DNA of 35,002 nucleotides from a virus, in the UHGV virus genome UHGV-0140552. The stretch is one strand, 5' to 3'. The notes under the pieces are model-generated. The model made no database searches and was not told where the DNA came from. It saw only the letters and a program-made list of their open reading frames with translations. Positions 1 to 22,832 of the stretch are shown piece by piece; position 1 is the first letter of the stretch, and each line of letters opens with the position of its first letter. The position numbers and the translations under genes were made by a program.

Positions 1-1017
1 TCATTTTTTCTGACCACCAACAACCGGCACAATTTTAGTTTTCCTGTCGTAAATCGCCGTTTGTCTCGAATTCTTATGGCCTGAAATCGCCTGTTTCTCC
101 TCGAGGCTTCCTTCCAGATCAGAGACACCTTTCGCTTTCAGATCGTGGAAAGTGAAATCTATCTGCAGGTGTGGGTTCTTTTCCTGCGCTGCGATTTTCG
201 CGTCGCGCCAGCGTGAATTAAAACCGTCACGGGTGTATTTGCTGCCGCTGGTCTGGTGAATGACAAACAGGCTACGGATACCCGGCTTTAACGGCAGGGA
301 ACGGGCGAGGGCGACAGCGGCGCGCAGGCGTGGCGACCATGCTTTGATTTGCTTCACGCCTGTTTTCCCCTGGCGGATAAAGATCCCGGTTTCGCGTATC
401 TGGTCTTCAGTCAAAGCCAGCACATCGCTTTGTCTGGCCAGACACAAATAAGCGATTTCCATGGTGGCGCGAACTACGTCTGGAGCAACATCGTAAACCG
501 CTTTGTATTCTTCGTCGGTGATGTAACGCTCCCGGGCTGCCTCTTTGAACTTCTTAACGCCCTGACAGGGATTATGCTGGACGTAACCCCGCTCATAACC
601 CCAGCGGAATACCCGAGAAAGAAAACTCTTTTCCCGGTTGGCCTGCGTTTTACTGGCCATGCCACGCTGATCCATATAGCGCCGGATGTGTTCCGGTTTA
701 ATTTTATCGGGGTTAACCTTCCCGAACACCGGCAACACTTTGCCTGCGTATTTCGTGTAGTCTTTTCGGGTTTCTGCCGCTAAATCCTGCCAGTCAGGGG
801 AAGACATGAATTGATCGGCCAGAGCCTGAAACGTCTTGCGCTCGACTTCTTCTCCCATGGCTTTTTCATATGCCAGCCATACAGCTGATTGAGGCTCGGA
901 GAGCGCACATAGCCTGATAGCCTTGTTATCTTTATTCCTGAATTCATACGCCGCCTTACCGCGATACACGCGGGGCGGCATCCAGTTATCAGCGGGGTTC
1001 TTACGTTTTCCGGCCAT
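1..1017 (-). CDS. int: Tyrosine-type site-specific integrase (338 aa, stop codon at 1-3)
   Basis: Full ORF on minus strand. C-terminal region has the integrase-like HDLKAKG...SGHKNSRQTAIYDR pattern with a putative catalytic Tyr. Lies at the edge of the phage gene set, directly downstream of a small excisionase-like gene. Confidence 0.88.
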   Translation of the reverse strand: MAGKRKNPADNWMPPRVYRGKAAYEFRNKDNKAIRLCALSEPQSAVWLAYEKAMGEEVERKTFQALADQFMSSPDWQDLAAETRKDYTKYAGKVLPVFGKVNPDKIKPEHIRRYMDQRGMASKTQANREKSFLSRVFRWGYERGYVQHNPCQGVKKFKEAARERYITDEEYKAVYDVAPDVVRATMEIAYLCLARQSDVLALTEDQIRETGIFIRQGKTGVKQIKAWSPRLRAAVALARSLPLKPGIRSLFVIHQTSGSKYTRDGFNSRWRDAKIAAQEKNPHLQIDFTFHDLKAKGVSDLEGSLEEKQAISGHKNSRQTAIYDRKTKIVPVVGGQKK

Positions 1018-1246
1018 TAAAGATAGCTCCGAAGTCTGGTTCTTCCTCCCGCACCGTCTCTTCCTGCTGGTTGCGGTATTTAATCGGGTTCAGGAAATGG
1101 CCCCACGTCGTTTTAGGATGGCCGTCTGCCCTTTCCATGAAAAAGACACCGGCCCGACGTAGCGCTTCACACTGCCTCGATTTAAGTGGGGTCCCCGTCA
1201 GTTCGATCATTTCCTCTCTGGTGATGATGTCGTGATCGTGTCTCAT
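1001..1246 (-). CDS. Putative excisionase / small recombination directionality factor (81 aa)
   Basis: Small basic ORF immediately upstream of int and overlapping it by 17 nt. Preceded by the conserved GAGGAAAGACC-ATG initiation motif. Function assigned by position only. Confidence 0.45.
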   Translation of the reverse strand: MRHDHDIITREEMIELTGTPLKSRQCEALRRAGVFFMERADGHPKTTWGHFLNPIKYRNQQEETVREEEPDFGAIFNGRKT

Positions 1247-1400
1247 GGTCTTTCCTCAGCATGCCGGCTATCGCGTTGTCTGCCGTATCGCAAGCGCGTT
1301 GGATATCGGACTGGGTCAGAGTCCTCTTTCTAACGCTGGCTGATAGCCTGCCAATTTTGATATCGAAATCTGAAAGTAAAAGTGTGCCTGGTTGCCAACG

Positions 1401-1440
1401 TAGCATTGTGATCTCCGGTTCATAGGTAGATCACAATGCT
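1401..1440. repeat. Perfect 14-bp inverted repeat TAGCATTGTGATCT / AGATCACAATGCTA with 12-bp spacer
   Basis: Read directly from sequence. Lies between the 61-aa gene and the xis-like gene, with no T-run on either side. Confidence 0.8.
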
Positions 1441-1455
1441 AACGACAGTTGCGAG

Positions 1456-1641
1456 TTATTTCTGATTAGGCTTAATCAGGTTTGGTTTATTCCGGAACGC
1501 GCCATTTTCGCGGGTGATTTTGGCACTGCGCGGAAAATGCATAGCCAGTTCACAACGCGCGCAGGCTTCGATTATCCCGTTAGTACCGTCCGGAAAAACG
1601 ACGTGAAGCGCGTCGCCTCGTTTCAGTGTGAGTTTCAGCAT
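1456..1641 (-). CDS. Hypothetical small protein (61 aa), start at ATG 1641
   Basis: ORF in the leftward early operon. Its ATG at 1639-1641 abuts the stop codon (1643-1645) of the upstream gene. No recognisable motif. Confidence 0.5.
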   Translation of the reverse strand: MLKLTLKRGDALHVVFPDGTNGIIEACARCELAMHFPRSAKITRENGAFRNKPNLIKPNQK

Positions 1642-2209: not shown

Positions 2210-4401
2210 TATGCTTTCTCCTCGGCTTTATTCAGTTCTTTAATGCGCCCATCTTTGATGGAGATGAGTCGGCGGAGCCGGCCAGACAGATAACGTTCAT
2301 GCTGCGTGTCGCCGTTGGCCTGGGCGGCTTTAATGTGAACATCGATCTCACGTGCGATAGGGGAAAACACACCGTTGATTTCGTTCACCGTCACGCCATG
2401 CGCCAGGGTATTAGCAACGCGGCTTAATTTATCGTCAAACTCCTGGCGGAGCCGTGCTGCATCTTCGGCTGATTCGCTGGCGTTCTTCAGGTCAAACTCG
2501 GCCTTGTTCTTCTGGCGGTACTCCAGATTGTCGTAAAGCCCCATAAAGATATCGCCACTGAATCCGAGGCCGGATAACGCTTTTTTGGTCGCATCTGTCA
2601 GTGATTTTTTGGCTGCTTCGCCGTCGCAGGTGATCCCGTATTTACTACCGTAAATGTAGGGTGTACAGCCGTATGCTGTTTCCTCACCTCGTACTCCGTT
2701 CAGGATGTACCAGAGCCGGACAGTCACAACATGGTGCTGTTCGTTGACGGTATTACCATTCCCATCAAGAACCAGCTCCCACGATGCGTTGTTGTCTTTG
2801 CCTTTTACTTGCCGAGTGATCGGCGCGCCAATATCGAAACGCTCTTCAACAATATCCACGCCCCAGCCGATGCCCTTAGGGCCAAACTCACGTGTGGCAA
2901 GCATGGTCATGTAGGTACCGTTGATCGAGGTGCCACCGCCGTTCTGTGTGAAAGCCTTAGTAAACCTTTCGTCGGTTTTAAATACGCGTTTCCAGAGGTC
3001 TAAATTGTCTTCCCCGATGATTGGTTTTCCGACAGCCTGCACAACATCCTCAGCGTTAGGCAGGCTTTCAGCGTGAGCGATTTGTTTTGCTAAACGCTCG
3101 GAATCATCAGCCAGTTTTTCAGCCTTAACGCTTAACTTCTCTTCCGGCTCTGCACCTTCACCAGAGGCATATACGCCATAACCCATATCATTGAGCGTCT
3201 CACGCGCCTGTTTGGCCTGGGTGTCGGTTACAACCGGCTGCTGCGCTTCCACTTTTTCGCCCACGTTTGAGGCGGTATTTTGCGTCGCCTCTGGTTGTTT
3301 AACGGATCCTGTCTCGGTTTCCTCAAAGCGGCCGTTGGCCGCCAGCCATGAATCGATATGGCGGCGCAGGCTGTCAGGGAAATGGTAGGTATCTTTCGCC
3401 GGTACGTTTTGTACCACGCCGAAGATGCTGGCGCGGTCGTATTTGAGTATCTGCGGCGTGGTGTGCAGCGATGCTGACCAGCGTTTAAAATCTTCCCGGT
3501 CATCGGAAATCATCTTCTTAGCGTCCAGAAGGTTTCCGGATAGTACCGGCGCATCAGGCGCCAGCGGGAGAAGGGCGGTAGCGATCTCCTGATCCAGCGT
3601 TGCATAAGTGTGTTTATATCCGCGCTTAGAAATTACCACGGGTGTTTTATCATCGGTGCTGGTGCTGGTGCTGGTGCTGGTGCTGGTGCTGGTGCTGGTG
3701 CTGGTGCTGAGAGCGGTATTTTTATATACGCCGGGGGCCAGTTCGTCGCGCTTGCCCGGATTCTCAAGCCAGCGTTTAACGAACTGAGAGATAGCCGCTT
3801 TGCCCGGCGTCTGGTTTTCAAAGTGGGAGAAAATACCCTGAATAAGATTGTTCAGACCTTCCACATGCATGCTTTGAACCGGGAAGTTATTTTGCAGGGC
3901 ACACAGAACATTAAAGTTAAAGCGATCTTCCTCTTCAAATTCCCCATCGTGGTTTTTCAGATTATCCAGATAATCCACAACCTGAGAATAAAGATGGCCA
4001 TCAATCGCCGCGGTACTAAAAAGCAGGACGGCAGCAAAGCGTTCATCAGGGGAAACGGTCATCAGGTCGATCACTTCATCGTCGGCAGGTAAACCTGCAC
4101 CACTTCCGGAAGCGCTATCCTGCGCAGTAGAAACCCATTTTTCACCGTCAAAAGTATGCTGCTGGGCGAATGACTCATCGAACTGGCCAACGGTCGGCAG
4201 CGGCTGGCCTTCAACGTGTTCCCACAGTTTCGGTTTGAAATAGTTGTCACCATTGGCCGGGTATGATTCCCAGAGTTTGCCGGTCATAATGCTTTCGGCC
4301 ACTTTTTTGTTTGGCGCATCGATGGCGATCGCCAGCTGCACGGCGCCGCAGTCTTTAATCGCCGATTTCTTTGGCTCAAATGAGCCGTTGTAGATGGTCA
4401 T
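2209..4401 (-). CDS. Large multidomain protein (730 aa) with C-terminal Rad52/Sak-type single-strand annealing domain and an internal (Ser-Thr)9 linker
   Basis: Segment GCTPYIYGSKYGITCDGEAAKKSLTDATKKALSGLGFSGDIFMGLYDN matches the Rad52-family signature (K-x-A/S-V/L-TD-x-x-K-K/R-AL-x-x-F/L-G). Start placed at ATG 4399-4401, which has the GAGGAAAGACCA RBS motif; the ORF-track start at 4434 is a GTG without a Shine-Dalgarno. Confidence 0.75.
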   Translation of the reverse strand: MTIYNGSFEPKKSAIKDCGAVQLAIAIDAPNKKVAESIMTGKLWESYPANGDNYFKPKLWEHVEGQPLPTVGQFDESFAQQHTFDGEKWVSTAQDSASGSGAGLPADDEVIDLMTVSPDERFAAVLLFSTAAIDGHLYSQVVDYLDNLKNHDGEFEEEDRFNFNVLCALQNNFPVQSMHVEGLNNLIQGIFSHFENQTPGKAAISQFVKRWLENPGKRDELAPGVYKNTALSTSTSTSTSTSTSTSTSTDDKTPVVISKRGYKHTYATLDQEIATALLPLAPDAPVLSGNLLDAKKMISDDREDFKRWSASLHTTPQILKYDRASIFGVVQNVPAKDTYHFPDSLRRHIDSWLAANGRFEETETGSVKQPEATQNTASNVGEKVEAQQPVVTDTQAKQARETLNDMGYGVYASGEGAEPEEKLSVKAEKLADDSERLAKQIAHAESLPNAEDVVQAVGKPIIGEDNLDLWKRVFKTDERFTKAFTQNGGGTSINGTYMTMLATREFGPKGIGWGVDIVEERFDIGAPITRQVKGKDNNASWELVLDGNGNTVNEQHHVVTVRLWYILNGVRGEETAYGCTPYIYGSKYGITCDGEAAKKSLTDATKKALSGLGFSGDIFMGLYDNLEYRQKNKAEFDLKNASESAEDAARLRQEFDDKLSRVANTLAHGVTVNEINGVFSPIAREIDVHIKAAQANGDTQHERYLSGRLRRLISIKDGRIKELNKAEEKA
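3655..3708. repeat. Perfect hexanucleotide tandem repeat (GGTGCT)x9, in-frame within the 730-aa gene, encoding (ST)9
   Basis: Read directly: nine contiguous GGTGCT units on the plus strand; on the minus coding strand AGCACC gives S-T repeats. Confidence 0.95.
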
Positions 4402-4445
4402 TGGTCTTTCCTCTTGGTTACTGGCGCAGGTCACGCGCCGGTTAA

Positions 4446-4769: not shown

Positions 4770-4887
4770 AGCGACTCCTTGATGATATATACTCAGAGCC
4801 GATCAGCGGCTCTGTCGTTGGTCTTTCCTCGCTACAGGGTTGGTCCCCTGTAGCATTCTGGGCGGTTTGGTCACTGTCCCGGGTAAA

Positions 4888-4962
4888 TTAGCCCACTTCG
4901 GTGGGCTTTTTTACGCCTGAAGGTTGCCGGTCTTTCCCGGCTGTCAGGGTGGTCAGCCCCAT
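4888..4962 (-). CDS. Possible leader-peptide ORF (24 aa, MGLTTLTAGKDRQPSGVKKPTEVG) ending inside the terminator hairpin
   Basis: ATG at 4960-4962 is preceded by a perfect copy of the GAGGAAAGACCA initiation motif. The stop codon (4888-4890) sits at the base of the 4890-4907 hairpin. Very short and unverified. Confidence 0.25.
   Translation of the reverse strand: MGLTTLTAGKDRQPSGVKKPTEVG
4890..4912 (+). terminator. Intrinsic-terminator-like hairpin AGCCCAC-TTCG-GTGGGCT followed by TTTTT (plus-strand sense); A-tract on the other side, so possibly bidirectional
   Basis: 7-bp GC-rich stem, TTCG tetraloop, T-run 4908-4912. Located in the ~490-bp noncoding leader between the repressor gene and the early-left genes. 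Confidence 0.55.
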
Positions 4963-5169
4963 TGGTCTTTCCTCGTTACTGCGTGAATGCTTTAAAAAAA
5001 TGCCCGGGGCGCCCGGGCCAAGACTACACACAGCAATTCGCATTCGTTGCGGTCTTTCCCGCATGTCATCGTACTGTCGGCGACCCGAAGAATTCGCGCC
5101 CGTCTTTCCGGACTGTCAGAACTGTTTCTGAACAACTGCCGCGTGGTTAGTGCGTCGTTGATGTGATGT

Positions 5170-5198
5170 AATTTAGATAAATCTAACAATTTGGTCAA
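5170..5198 (-). promoter_or_regulatory. Putative early-left promoter (PL-like): -35 TTGACC, 17-bp spacer, -10 TAAATT, overlapped by an operator
   Basis: Reverse complement of 5170-5198 reads TTGACC-17 nt-TAAATT. The operator palindrome at 5173-5186 overlaps the spacer and -10. Confidence 0.4.
5173..5186. promoter_or_regulatory. Operator-like 14-bp palindrome TTAGATAAATCTAA (OL-like)
   Basis: One of three sites fitting TTAGA-N4-TCTAA. A swapped-arm relative, TCTAACTGATTAGA, lies at 5244-5257. Confidence 0.6.
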
Positions 5199-5263: not shown

Positions 5264-5650
5264 TTATTTTTGTTTGCGGGCTTGCAGTAACTCCTCAAAT
5301 AAACGATTGAAACCGTCTACTTTTTCGCGAAGTTCCGTTAAATGCCGCTCTTTTTCAGATTCTGGGAGTGACGAAAAGAGTTTTAAAAGCTCTGTTTCTC
5401 GTTCATCTAATGGCGGCGGGGTGTCTACCGGGGTTCCCGGAGTGGCGGCTTCATCGCCGTAAAGTATCCAGGTAGGGCTGCATTGAAGTGCGTTACTTAA
5501 AGCGAAAAGGTTTTTTCCGCCAGGCTCACTATCACCGGTCTCCCACTGGGAGATAGTGACGTGCGCGACGTTAACCAGCTTCGCTAAAGCGCGCTGAGTA
5601 AGTTTGAGATCTTTTCTACGCGCTCTGATGCGCTCACCTGGCATTGTCAT
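5264..5650 (-). CDS. Phage repressor, HTH XRE-family (128 aa), RacR/CI-like, no S24 peptidase domain
   Basis: N-terminal HTH (LTQRALAKLVNVAHVTISQWETG). Divergent from a cro-like gene, with palindromic operators in the 80-bp intergenic region. Too short to carry a LexA-like autocleavage domain. Confidence 0.85.
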   Translation of the reverse strand: MTMPGERIRARRKDLKLTQRALAKLVNVAHVTISQWETGDSEPGGKNLFALSNALQCSPTWILYGDEAATPGTPVDTPPPLDERETELLKLFSSLPESEKERHLTELREKVDGFNRLFEELLQARKQK

Positions 5651-5652
5651 AG

Positions 5653-5666
5653 TTAGATAATTCTAA
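5653..5666. promoter_or_regulatory. Operator-like 14-bp palindrome TTAGATAATTCTAA (OR-like, proximal to the repressor gene)
   Basis: Palindrome read from sequence. On the minus strand it contains TAGAAT about 10 nt upstream of the repressor ATG, suggesting a leaderless PRM-like transcript. Confidence 0.6.
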
Positions 5667-5672
5667 ATTTCC

Positions 5673-5701
5673 TTGACTTCGTTATCTCGAACACCTAATT
5701 T
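5673..5701 (+). promoter_or_regulatory. Putative early-right promoter (PR-like): -35 TTGACT, 17-bp spacer, -10 TAATTT
   Basis: Sequence match. The -10 is weak, so this is a tentative call. Confidence 0.35.
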
Positions 5702-5702
5702 G

Positions 5703-5716
5703 TTAGAAAAATCTAA
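5703..5716. promoter_or_regulatory. Operator-like 14-bp palindrome TTAGAAAAATCTAA (OR-like, proximal to the cro-like gene)
   Basis: Palindrome lies between the putative PR -10 and the CAGGAGGG Shine-Dalgarno of the cro-like gene. Confidence 0.6.
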
Positions 5717-5730
5717 CAGGAGGGTGTTTC

Positions 5731-5925
5731 ATGTTAACAACTGATGCGATCAAATATTTTGGTAGTAAGAGAAAACTGGCTGAGGCCGCTGGCGTTAAGG
5801 CTCCTACTGTCTATGCGTGGGGGCGTTTGGTTCCTGAAGGTAAAGCGGCTCGTTTGTCTCTGATGACTGATGGCGAACTTGTTTATGACCCAAAGGCTTA
5901 CCAACTGCCAGCCAAATCAGCTTAA
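5731..5925 (+). CDS. Cro-like / YdaS-family small HTH regulator (64 aa)
   Basis: Small ORF divergent from the repressor, with a strong Shine-Dalgarno (CAGGAGGG). HTH-like segment KRKLAEAAGVKAPTVYAWG. Same arrangement as racR-ydaS in the E. coli Rac prophage. Confidence 0.75.
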   Translation: MLTTDAIKYFGSKRKLAEAAGVKAPTVYAWGRLVPEGKAARLSLMTDGELVYDPKAYQLPAKSA

Positions 5926-5987
5926 CAATTAGCGGCATCGAAATCTGATTACGCTTAATCAATTTTCAGCGACAGGAGACGCTCGAA

Positions 5988-6434
5988 GTGGAATACCTCG
6001 AAGAACTTAAACGAGAGATCTTTAACTGGGCAGCGGAAAGCGGGCAGGAGCTGGTTGCTATCGAGATAAGCCGCATGTGGTTTCGTCTTGGTGGTAATAC
6101 CGGTTCGCTGAAGCTGCACCAGATCGAAGATGCAGATGGAAACGCCGACTGGCGGGCAATCAACAACAACCGCCAACAAATTTTTCGTTGGTTGCGAGGC
6201 GAGACCAAAGCCGCGAGAGCCAAAACTCTGGCGCTGGTCAAAGCGATGGAAGCGGCGCTGCCGGCAGAACGTTACGCGCGCTTGGGTATGTCCACTCAGT
6301 ATTTAATTTGTGTGGCCATTCGCGAGTTTGCCGCGGCGATTATCGCGTTGTTACTCGACGCCAGAGACGGGCCGCAGCAAGTCGCCAGAGCATTGCAAGC
6401 TATGCGAGAAACACAGCGCCTGACCAGCGTTTAA
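5988..6434 (+). CDS. YdaT-like / CII-like regulatory protein (148 aa), GTG start
   Basis: Follows the cro-like gene. AGGAG Shine-Dalgarno 9 nt upstream of GTG 5988. The QQIFRWLRGETK segment is reminiscent of the YdaT family (recalled from memory, unverified). Confidence 0.55.
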   Translation: MEYLEELKREIFNWAAESGQELVAIEISRMWFRLGGNTGSLKLHQIEDADGNADWRAINNNRQQIFRWLRGETKAARAKTLALVKAMEAALPAERYARLGMSTQYLICVAIREFAAAIIALLLDARDGPQQVARALQAMRETQRLTSV

Positions 6435-22343: not shown

Positions 22344-22832
22344 ATGTGTACAGGTGTTGAAATCGCACTGGTGGCTTCTTCGGTTCTCGCTGCTGGCGGG
22401 GCAGTGGCCAGCGGCCAGCAGCAAAAGAAAATGGCGAACTATCAGGCCGCGCAGGCTGAAGCCGACGCCGAAGCATCAAAAGCAGCGGCAAAAGTTGAAG
22501 CGGAGCGTATTCGTAAAGCCGGTCGCCAGCAGGCATCTGCCGCCAATGCTGCGTTGGCAGCTTCAGGCGTTGAGACGGGAGAGGGAACGGCGCTCCGTGT
22601 CACGTCAGGTATTGTAGGGGATGCGGAGCAGGACGCCTATCAGACAATCCTTAATGGCGTGAATTCTTCTAATCGCCTGCAGGCGCAGGCACAAGCCGAC
22701 AGGATCAGCGGCAGTAATGCGGCGACAGCGGGGAATATTAGTGCTGGCAGTTCATTACTTAGTGCTGGCGGAACTGCATACAGCGGCTGGAAAAAAGCAA
22801 AAACAGGCAAATACGGTTTATATGCGGAGTAA
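22344..22832 (+). CDS. Internal virion protein (162 aa), Ala-rich, N-terminal hydrophobic segment
   Basis: Position and composition. TGGAGG Shine-Dalgarno. Confidence 0.5.
   Translation: MCTGVEIALVASSVLAAGGAVASGQQQKKMANYQAAQAEADAEASKAAAKVEAERIRKAGRQQASAANAALAASGVETGEGTALRVTSGIVGDAEQDAYQTILNGVNSSNRLQAQAQADRISGSNAATAGNISAGSSLLSAGGTAYSGWKKAKTGKYGLYAE

Follow-up and report, generated by a model that had tools for sequence, protein, structure and literature searches.

A palindrome upstream of xis-int in an enterobacterial prophage is the DNA copy of an mRNA hairpin over the start of a small gene, orf74, and probably a gate for transcripts of different origin

A window of 35,002 nucleotides (nt), the whole stretch analysed here from the virus genome UHGV-0140552, contains near its left end a perfect inverted repeat (dyad) situated between a small gene, orf61, and an excisionase-like gene, xis, which is followed by the integrase gene, int. 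The question raised by this locus is whether such a palindrome acts as DNA, by binding a regulator, or as RNA, by folding, and which gene it controls. All genes in the first 5 kb of the window are carried by the minus strand, and the dyad lies inside the leftward early (pL-type) transcription unit; the relevant RNA is that of the minus strand. Our analysis showed that the dyad is the DNA copy of a selected mRNA hairpin, which hides the Shine-Dalgarno sequence (SD) and AUG of a small gene, orf74.

A conserved mRNA hairpin over the start of orf74

A repeat search of the whole window revealed two arms of 14 nt, 1401-1414 (TAGCATTGTGATCT) and 1428-1441 (AGATCACAATGCTA), which were 100% complementary and separated by a spacer of 13 nt, giving a total span of 41 bp (1401-1441). 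This is the longest perfect local inverted repeat of the 35-kb window. The original prediction had correctly described a perfect 14-bp inverted repeat, but its spacer of 12 bp and its end at 1440 were each off by one. Its view that the dyad was unlikely to arise by chance was borne out: in 60 dinucleotide-preserving shuffles, the longest perfect repeat (spacer 3-30) was 8-12 nt and none reached 14 nt. The 8-nt core of the dyad with its spacer occurred once in the window against 0 expected, and an 81-nt RNA segment holding the dyad folded at -28.4 kcal/mol (z = -5.1), with equally stable folds in 0/200 shuffles. The prediction had also placed the dyad upstream of xis-int, with the start codon of an open reading frame (ORF), 1182..1406 on the minus strand, inside the repeat; the dyad indeed lies in the same transcription unit as xis-int, and the ATG is 1406-1404.

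No T/U run was found after the dyad on either strand, and a terminator scan of 1000-2300 gave no call at the dyad, in agreement with the earlier statement that it is not a simple terminator. The same results weigh against transcriptional attenuation, in which the hairpin would serve as a terminator or pause, or the silence of orf74 would expose about 210 nt to Rho, so that pL-driven transcription of xis-int is cut. Rho polarity acts on untranslated RNA, and if orf74 is untranslated, about 210 nt (1456 to 1246) would lack ribosomes. Attenuation is nonetheless considered very unlikely.

The ORF starting in the dyad encodes 74 amino acids and had been called doubtful; it proved to be a conserved coding gene, orf74. 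It matches phrog_27062 (E = 6.7e-31), with homologues in roughly 100 protein clusters (75 by sequence search and 105 by profile search) from Klebsiella, Raoultella, Enterobacter, Citrobacter, Escherichia, Salmonella, Serratia, Yersinia, Pectobacterium, Dickeya, Brenneria, and Symbiopectobacterium. Conservation covers some 50 N-terminal residues (M[LQ]xWQPGxxLLSDFDIKIGRLSASVRK..) and ends with RKDH, which is the xis SD plus ATG (AGGAAAGACCATG) read in another frame; the tail beyond is variable. This overlap of the 3′ part with the xis SD/AUG was found in every lineage, even where a lambda-type Exc replaces the DUF4224 xis. Among 48 distinct 129-nt 5′ parts, the variable columns at the three codon positions numbered 25, 19, and 41 of 43, and codon pairs with a single difference were synonymous in 16,683 cases and nonsynonymous in 3,391. 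This codon-position and synonymous bias indicates that orf74 is a real protein-coding gene under purifying selection.

The gene has often been overlooked. It was omitted in 2/3 relatives examined: the RefSeq entry for the E. coli 23GD11002 prophage and the GenBank entry for "Stenotrophomonas phage vB_SmeS_BUCT708" (BUCT708) lack it, and ZF40 has it annotated as gp04. Its product had no match in Pfam, NCBIfam or PDB, and the AlphaFold model was weak (predicted local distance difference test, pLDDT, 61), with two helices. For the Symbiopectobacterium homologue (L189 1501-1731), the start was called at an upstream ATG located within the 5′ arm, and the family N-terminus (MQRWKPG) starts at the 3′-arm ATG, 24 nt downstream of the called start. 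A 35-amino acid ORF (1316..1423) beginning at an ATG in the loop was rejected; that ATG is missing in relatives.

On the transcribed strand, the 5′ arm of the hairpin is UAGCAUUGUGAUCU (1428..1441, minus strand), as delimited by the repeat, the fold and covariation. It is followed by a 13-nt loop (1415..1427, minus strand), the last two bases of which, 1416-1415, are the GG of the SD GGAG (1416-1413, minus strand) and pair with CC 1426-1425 in the minimum free energy (MFE) fold. The 3′ arm (1401..1414, minus strand) runs from the latter half of the SD through the SD-AUG spacer and the AUG (1406-1404) to orf74 codon 2. An optional lower stem was indicated by folding, with its 3′ side at 1393..1400 (orf74 codons 3-5) pairing with its 5′ side at 1442..1447 across a bulge or internal loop, both on the minus strand; past a one-base bulge the stem is extended into orf74 codons 2-5, by 3-5 extra bp in the window.

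More than 90 related loci were collected, and covariation was counted on 48 distinct upstream sequences. Since RNAalifold on a raw MAFFT alignment gave only a weak consensus, owing to four misaligned divergent rows, an explicit pair count and per-sequence folds were used. The 14 stem pairs were 89% paired, compared with 29-52% when the partner was slid by 1-3 columns. Double changes were observed in 6 stem pairs (43 cells), and for none of three measures (paired fraction, count of doubly changed cells, covariation score) did any of the column shuffles reach the observed value (0/500). Arm variants included GCGGCCUC/GAGGUCGC, CAUAGC/GCUAUG, and GCAUUGCUG/CAGCAAUGC. In the Serratia locus L094, a coding change of codon 3 from CGA to CCA was compensated in the non-coding 5′ strand. 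The same design was built from unrelated arms in Dickeya (AUAGUGACCUC/GGAGGUCACUAU, with a 4-nt loop), Yersinia (GCAUGGUGG/CCACCAUGC), and Symbiopectobacterium (CAUGGUGGCCUU/GGAGGUCACCAUG). The AUG was paired in 48/48 MFE folds and in 13 further folds, and the SD was partly or wholly paired across the folded relatives, from Klebsiella to Dickeya. By our reading, internal G.U pairs of the sense strand exceeded A.C pairs (about 10 vs 3 independent events), which modestly favours sense RNA over antisense RNA or DNA as the form under selection.

The length of the stem bears on the RNase III-type substrate suggested in the original prediction: the enzyme might cut the long stem in the pL transcript and thereby separate or destabilise the xis-int mRNA, or activate or inactivate orf74 translation. 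Usual RNase III substrates span about two helical turns (~20 bp), and in phage lambda RNase III hairpins control int (sib) and N. The bulged stem approaches two helical turns in most lineages (~17-20 bp; ~19 bp in Serratia). However, it is just 10-14 bp in Pectobacterium, Dickeya, and Symbiopectobacterium, where pairing of the AUG and SD is kept all the same. Rfam gave no match in the whole window that passed its gathering or E-value thresholds, with sub-threshold generic hairpins (miRNA precursor) alone at 1385-1451, and a literature search on excisionase-linked hairpins returned nothing relevant. Cleavage by RNase III is doubtful as the function of the hairpin; it is compatible with the gate proposed below and could add to it. 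What is conserved is that the translation start of orf74 is covered, whereas the length of the stem varies.

The original prediction had offered two forms for the dyad, an RNA stem and a DNA site for a dimeric regulator, and had suggested conservation in related prophages as a check. The hairpin is kept from Klebsiella to Dickeya, and the compensatory changes across many lineages speak for the RNA stem. The dimeric regulator did not fare as well: the arms vary with pairing kept and have no other copies in the genome. An operator would keep its half-sites, whereas here arm changes compensate each other and the arms are entirely different in Dickeya and Yersinia; because the arms covary and are replaced wholesale, a sequence-specific DNA operator at the dyad is excluded. 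The arms also match neither the CI/Cro operators nor the YdaT-box. A perfect palindrome whose arms are about one helical turn apart would suit a DNA-level element, either such an operator or a cruciform, but this class of explanation as a whole is extremely unlikely. The real dimer-type site is the adjoining 18-bp YdaT-box at 1462-1479.

Three other readings of the region were tried and rejected. A CRP-like TGTGA/TCACA site had the wrong spacing (N19), and the motif is replaced in other lineages. A CI/Cro operator was dismissed since the operators, TTAGA-N-TCTAA, are unlike the arms. An antisense small RNA on the plus strand, ending at the box and a T-run, lacked a plus-strand promoter-like site, and the T-run is orf61 coding sequence. 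The likely CI/Cro operators themselves (TTAGA-N5-6-TCTAA) were noticed by eye at 5173-5189, 5655-5672, and 5701-5718, where they flank the repressor gene; they resemble neither the dyad nor the YdaT-box.

YdaT-boxes and promoter-like hexamers

The box next to the hairpin, CTGATT-AGGCTT-AATCAG (site 1, 1462..1479), lies in the last codons of orf61 (1456..1641, minus strand), 20 bases upstream of the 5′ arm. A second box, CTGATT-ACGCTT-AATCAA (site 2, 5945..5962), is located between the cro-like gene and ydaT, a P_RE-like position. The core TGATT-N6-AATCA is perfect at these two sites of the window only (1463-1478 and 5946-5961), and both boxes fit, with a perfect core, the published motif of YdaT, a protein that binds 5′-TTGATT-N6-AATCAA-3′ at the ydaS/ydaT junction and is a functional equivalent of lambda CII (PMC9986795). 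The YdaT of Rac gave a box-dependent 29-fold activation of leftward transcription toward the repressor gene and forms tetramers that can hold two DNA sites (PMC11879457), and that of CP-933P activates the P_RE equivalent (PMC8630535). In the window, ydaT (5988..6434, plus strand; PF06254, E = 3e-21) belongs to the same element and is the presumed activator gene for both boxes. Box 2 stands at the cro(ydaS)/ydaT junction, as it does in ZF40, BUCT708, and Serratia L181.

From Klebsiella to Pectobacterium, Yersinia, and Dickeya, the half-sites of site 1 hardly change; the distal half-site is degenerate in some Serratia-type loci. Since the central 6 nt and the encoded amino acids vary while the half-sites are kept, the constraint on site 1 acts at the nucleotide level. 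BUCT708 has a box at both positions (0 and 1 mismatches to the 18-mer), and so does ZF40 (0 and 2 mismatches). In Serratia L181, which combines YdaT with a lambda-type Exc/Int module, site 1 has one core mismatch and site 2, judged by eye, keeps a single half-site (CCAATT...AATCAG).

A perfect box core, TGATTATTAATAATCA, was also seen in the Rac prophage of E. coli K-12, between rcbA and xisR (L184 1705-1720; NC_000913.3 1413504-1413519). On the leftward strand, TAACAT comes 21 nt after it and about 25 nt ahead of the xisR ATG. The paper on the YdaT of Rac makes no mention of xis (PMC11879457).

Both boxes of the window are followed on the leftward strand, exactly 20 nt on, by a hexamer of the form TAnnnT. 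At site 1 this is TAGCAT (1436..1441, minus strand), whose six bases also open the 5′ arm, and at site 2 TAAGCT (5919..5924, minus strand); in ZF40, the hexamers at N20 are TACCGT and TACGCT. TAnnnT was present at N20 in 69/73 distinct site-1 and 56/57 distinct site-2 sequences; no other offset showed a peak, nor did the opposite side of the box. The spacer sequence varies freely, and at site 2 so does the cro gene beyond. The Rac box on which experiments have been done, TTGATTTTCATGAATCAT-N20-TATGAT, shares this geometry. Dickeya has TAATAT or TAAGAT, lying mostly outside the stem, and Pectobacterium has TACCGT; A2 of the hexamer is retained in L011/L012 and in Yersinia although the stem has a mismatch or bulge there. 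Because the Dickeya hexamer is mostly outside the stem and A2 is kept when unpaired, these sequences point to a constraint on the hexamer other than pairing.

If a hexamer 20 bp from the 18-bp box serves as a -10 element, the centre of the box falls at about -41.5, where class-II activators bind. This conserved geometry leads us to infer that YdaT activates two leftward promoters, one equivalent to P_RE at site 2 and one equivalent to P_I at site 1, for which TAAGCT and TAGCAT would be the respective -10-like hexamers.

A predicted transcript-origin gate and its gene context

The arrangement of box, hexamer and hairpin suggests that the hairpin is a transcript-origin-specific translational gate for orf74-xis-int, opened on transcripts from the YdaT-activated P_I-like promoter, a reading that we hold to be moderately probable. 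In RNA reading through from pL, the complete hairpin would form, and the orf74 ribosome site would be shut and orf74 silent. When YdaT activates the P_I-like promoter at site 1, transcription is predicted to start at about 1430-1427, the end of the 5′ arm or start of the loop. The resulting RNA would have a leader of 18-24 nt that contains the SD and, because it lacks the 5′ arm, leaves the orf74 ribosome site open. Binding of YdaT at site 1, the promoter, where it starts transcription and what follows for xis and int are all predictions from the sequence.

The energetic difference between the two RNAs was calculated for the region from -13 to +3. The cost of opening was a median of 20.2 kcal/mol in read-through RNA (window, 19.8) and 5.1 kcal/mol when the RNA began 7 nt past the hexamer (window, 5.6); in five distant lineages, the values were 17-20 and 4.4-5.9 kcal/mol, respectively. 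Ribosome-site stability is known to govern expression, and a modelled difference of this size would be expected to alter translation initiation by orders of magnitude.

The covering of the ribosome site, which is established, would also suit a plain translational damper or coupling device without an internal promoter, in which orf74 is kept very low or depends on ribosomes finishing orf61 about 15 nt before the stem, and the box has another role, such as repression or looping by a YdaT tetramer to the cro/ydaT box. The orf61 stop and the stem are a constant distance apart, as coupling might require, and the tetramer can hold two DNA sites (PMC11879457). On the other hand, a ribosome at UAA 1458-1456, judging from the usual footprint, would reach the lowest 2-3 pairs only and leave the 14-bp core intact. 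The same box-N20-TAnnnT is found at site 2 and in Rac, where the hairpin is absent, and the hexamer is kept where pairing needs none, as in the Dickeya, Pectobacterium, L011/L012, and Yersinia cases above. A device of this kind is considered unlikely.

Several observations count against a gate that opens on P_I-like transcripts. A generic sigma-70 scan gave no promoter in 1000-2300, which is expected for an activator-dependent promoter without a -35 element but does not speak for one. In Met-Leu lineages, TAGCAT is also demanded by pairing with AUGCUA/G, so that the hexamer is not independent evidence there, and 4/73 site-1 sequences lack TAnnnT at N20, having CATTGT or TTTGCA. The fixed 14-nt distance between the orf61 stop and the hairpin could reflect a translational-coupling constraint. 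The excess of G.U over A.C pairs is modest, and the antisense strand folds about equally well. In addition, the YdaT-responsive promoter of Rac has been assigned to about 190 bp from the box (PMC11879457), and the promoter proposed for CP-933P was placed such that the box is downstream of it (PMC9986795). The -41.5 geometry is our own deduction and differs from the published view.

What the gate might do for recombination is a more tentative matter. Translation of orf74 across the xis SD/AUG may, by speculation, alter translation of xis. The hairpin could then be the sensor of a recombination-directionality switch, a proposal that we put forward as doubtful. In lysogeny, orf74 would be translated on YdaT-dependent RNA, and its ribosomes would cross the xis SD/AUG out of frame, so that Xis is altered or, most simply, blocked, and Int is made without Xis. 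Upon induction, the hairpin of the pL RNA would silence orf74 and leave the xis start free, giving Xis plus Int.

The genes downstream of the hairpin were assigned as follows. The xis-like gene (1001..1246, minus strand) matches DUF4224 (Pfam E = 2.6e-14) and the PHROG "excisionase" (E = 1.7e-33), and its SD and ATG lie within orf74. It is followed by a tyrosine integrase gene (1..1017, minus strand; 338 amino acids). Upstream, orf61 (phrog_2482, 61 amino acids) travels together with orf74 in relatives, and farther upstream on the minus strand are a Gp157 gene and a gene for 741 amino acids. To the right of these lie a CI-like repressor gene (5264..5650, minus strand) and a Cro/YdaS-like gene (5731..5925; profile match to P22_Cro/YdaS).

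The orf61-box-hairpin-orf74 cassette was found joined to unrelated downstream modules, either a DUF4224 xis plus integrase or a lambda-type Exc plus Arm-binding integrase (L094/L181 and L097 vs the window), and also to differing upstream recombination genes, Gp157 plus the 741-amino acid gene or RecT/YqaJ. The junction of the cassette, exactly at the xis SD/ATG, is a mosaic boundary. BUCT708 (L001/L100, OM816834.1) has 81% DNA identity to this enterobacterial prophage region and carries the orf61-hairpin-orf74-xis-int module and both YdaT-boxes; its stated host looks odd for such a phage.

Further features were noticed in the early-left region. A ribosome-site cassette, GAGGAAAGACCA(A)TG, is repeated on the minus strand at 1245-1258, 4401-4414, 4818-4831, and 4962-4975, preceding xis, the 741-amino acid gene and two short ORFs near pL; the true start of the 741-amino acid gene is probably the ATG at 4402. 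Additional copies of GGAAAGACC were seen at about 4931, 5052, and 5104. A (GGTGCT)n run at 3655-3715 in the 741-amino acid gene encodes a Ser-Thr repeat (STSTST...), possibly a length-variable linker. Between the presumed pL and the first early-left genes, a G+C-rich hairpin, agcccacttcggtgggct, followed by TTTTTT on the plus strand, was recognised by eye at 4888-4918 and could terminate rightward or bidirectional transcription.

Comparison with known systems

The closest match to the box is in Rac and CP-933P, where the activator is of the same PF06254 family, the site is an inverted repeat at the cro(ydaS)/ydaT position, and leftward activation is experimental (PMC9986795, PMC11879457, PMC8630535). 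A second box upstream of xis-int and the box-N20-hexamer geometry are apparently undescribed in those papers: in term searches, "integrase" was absent from all three, "excisionase" from PMC9986795 and PMC11879457, and "excision" from PMC8630535. Four features thus appear to be undescribed so far, namely the second YdaT-box upstream of xis-int, the fixed box-N20-hexamer, a 5′ arm doubling as a -10 element, and the gated small gene.

With these features, an anonymous palindrome becomes a testable regulatory design in prophages widespread among enterobacteria, including Klebsiella, Escherichia, Salmonella, Serratia, Yersinia, Pectobacterium, and Dickeya, and a P_I-type promoter is predicted for the YdaT class of CII equivalents. 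As the same box lies upstream of xisR in E. coli K-12 Rac, the promoter part is directly testable there. If the gate sets the Xis:Int ratio, it would be a new coupling of the lysis-lysogeny decision to the direction of recombination.

Start codons placed in a stem, with RNA structure setting translation, are also found in the MS2 replicase operator and the alternative structures of lambda cIII; unlike in those cases, relief is proposed here to come from a shorter transcript, not from a protein ligand or alternative folds. In the late genes of T4 (e lysozyme, soc, 49, and I-TevI), a hairpin in early read-through RNA covers the SD/AUG and late promoters start inside the hairpin. The present locus resembles T4 e, soc and 49 in that the hairpin hides the SD and AUG on the long RNA and a second promoter within or after the 5′ arm would give an open RNA. 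It differs in that the inner promoter is predicted, a CII-like activator, YdaT, takes the place of the T4 late sigma factor, and the genes form a temperate xis-int module.

The layout of activator sites is like that of lambda CII, which has one site at the cro/cII junction, for P_RE, and another upstream of int, for P_I; as in lambda, expression of the recombination genes would depend on the promoter of origin. The activator, however, would be YdaT, with a POU-like helix-turn-helix and the box TGATT-N6-AATCA, and not CII. Lambda-type CII sites (TTGC-N6-TTGC) were considered and discarded, the sole match in the window being at 22797, at chance level, and none in these regions. The predicted promoter lies upstream of xis, while lambda P_I is inside xis, and the discriminating structure would be a 5′ hairpin over a ribosome site in place of the 3′ RNase III site of sib. 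Should the directionality switch be true, it would represent a new answer to the problem that lambda solves by P_I inside xis together with sib.

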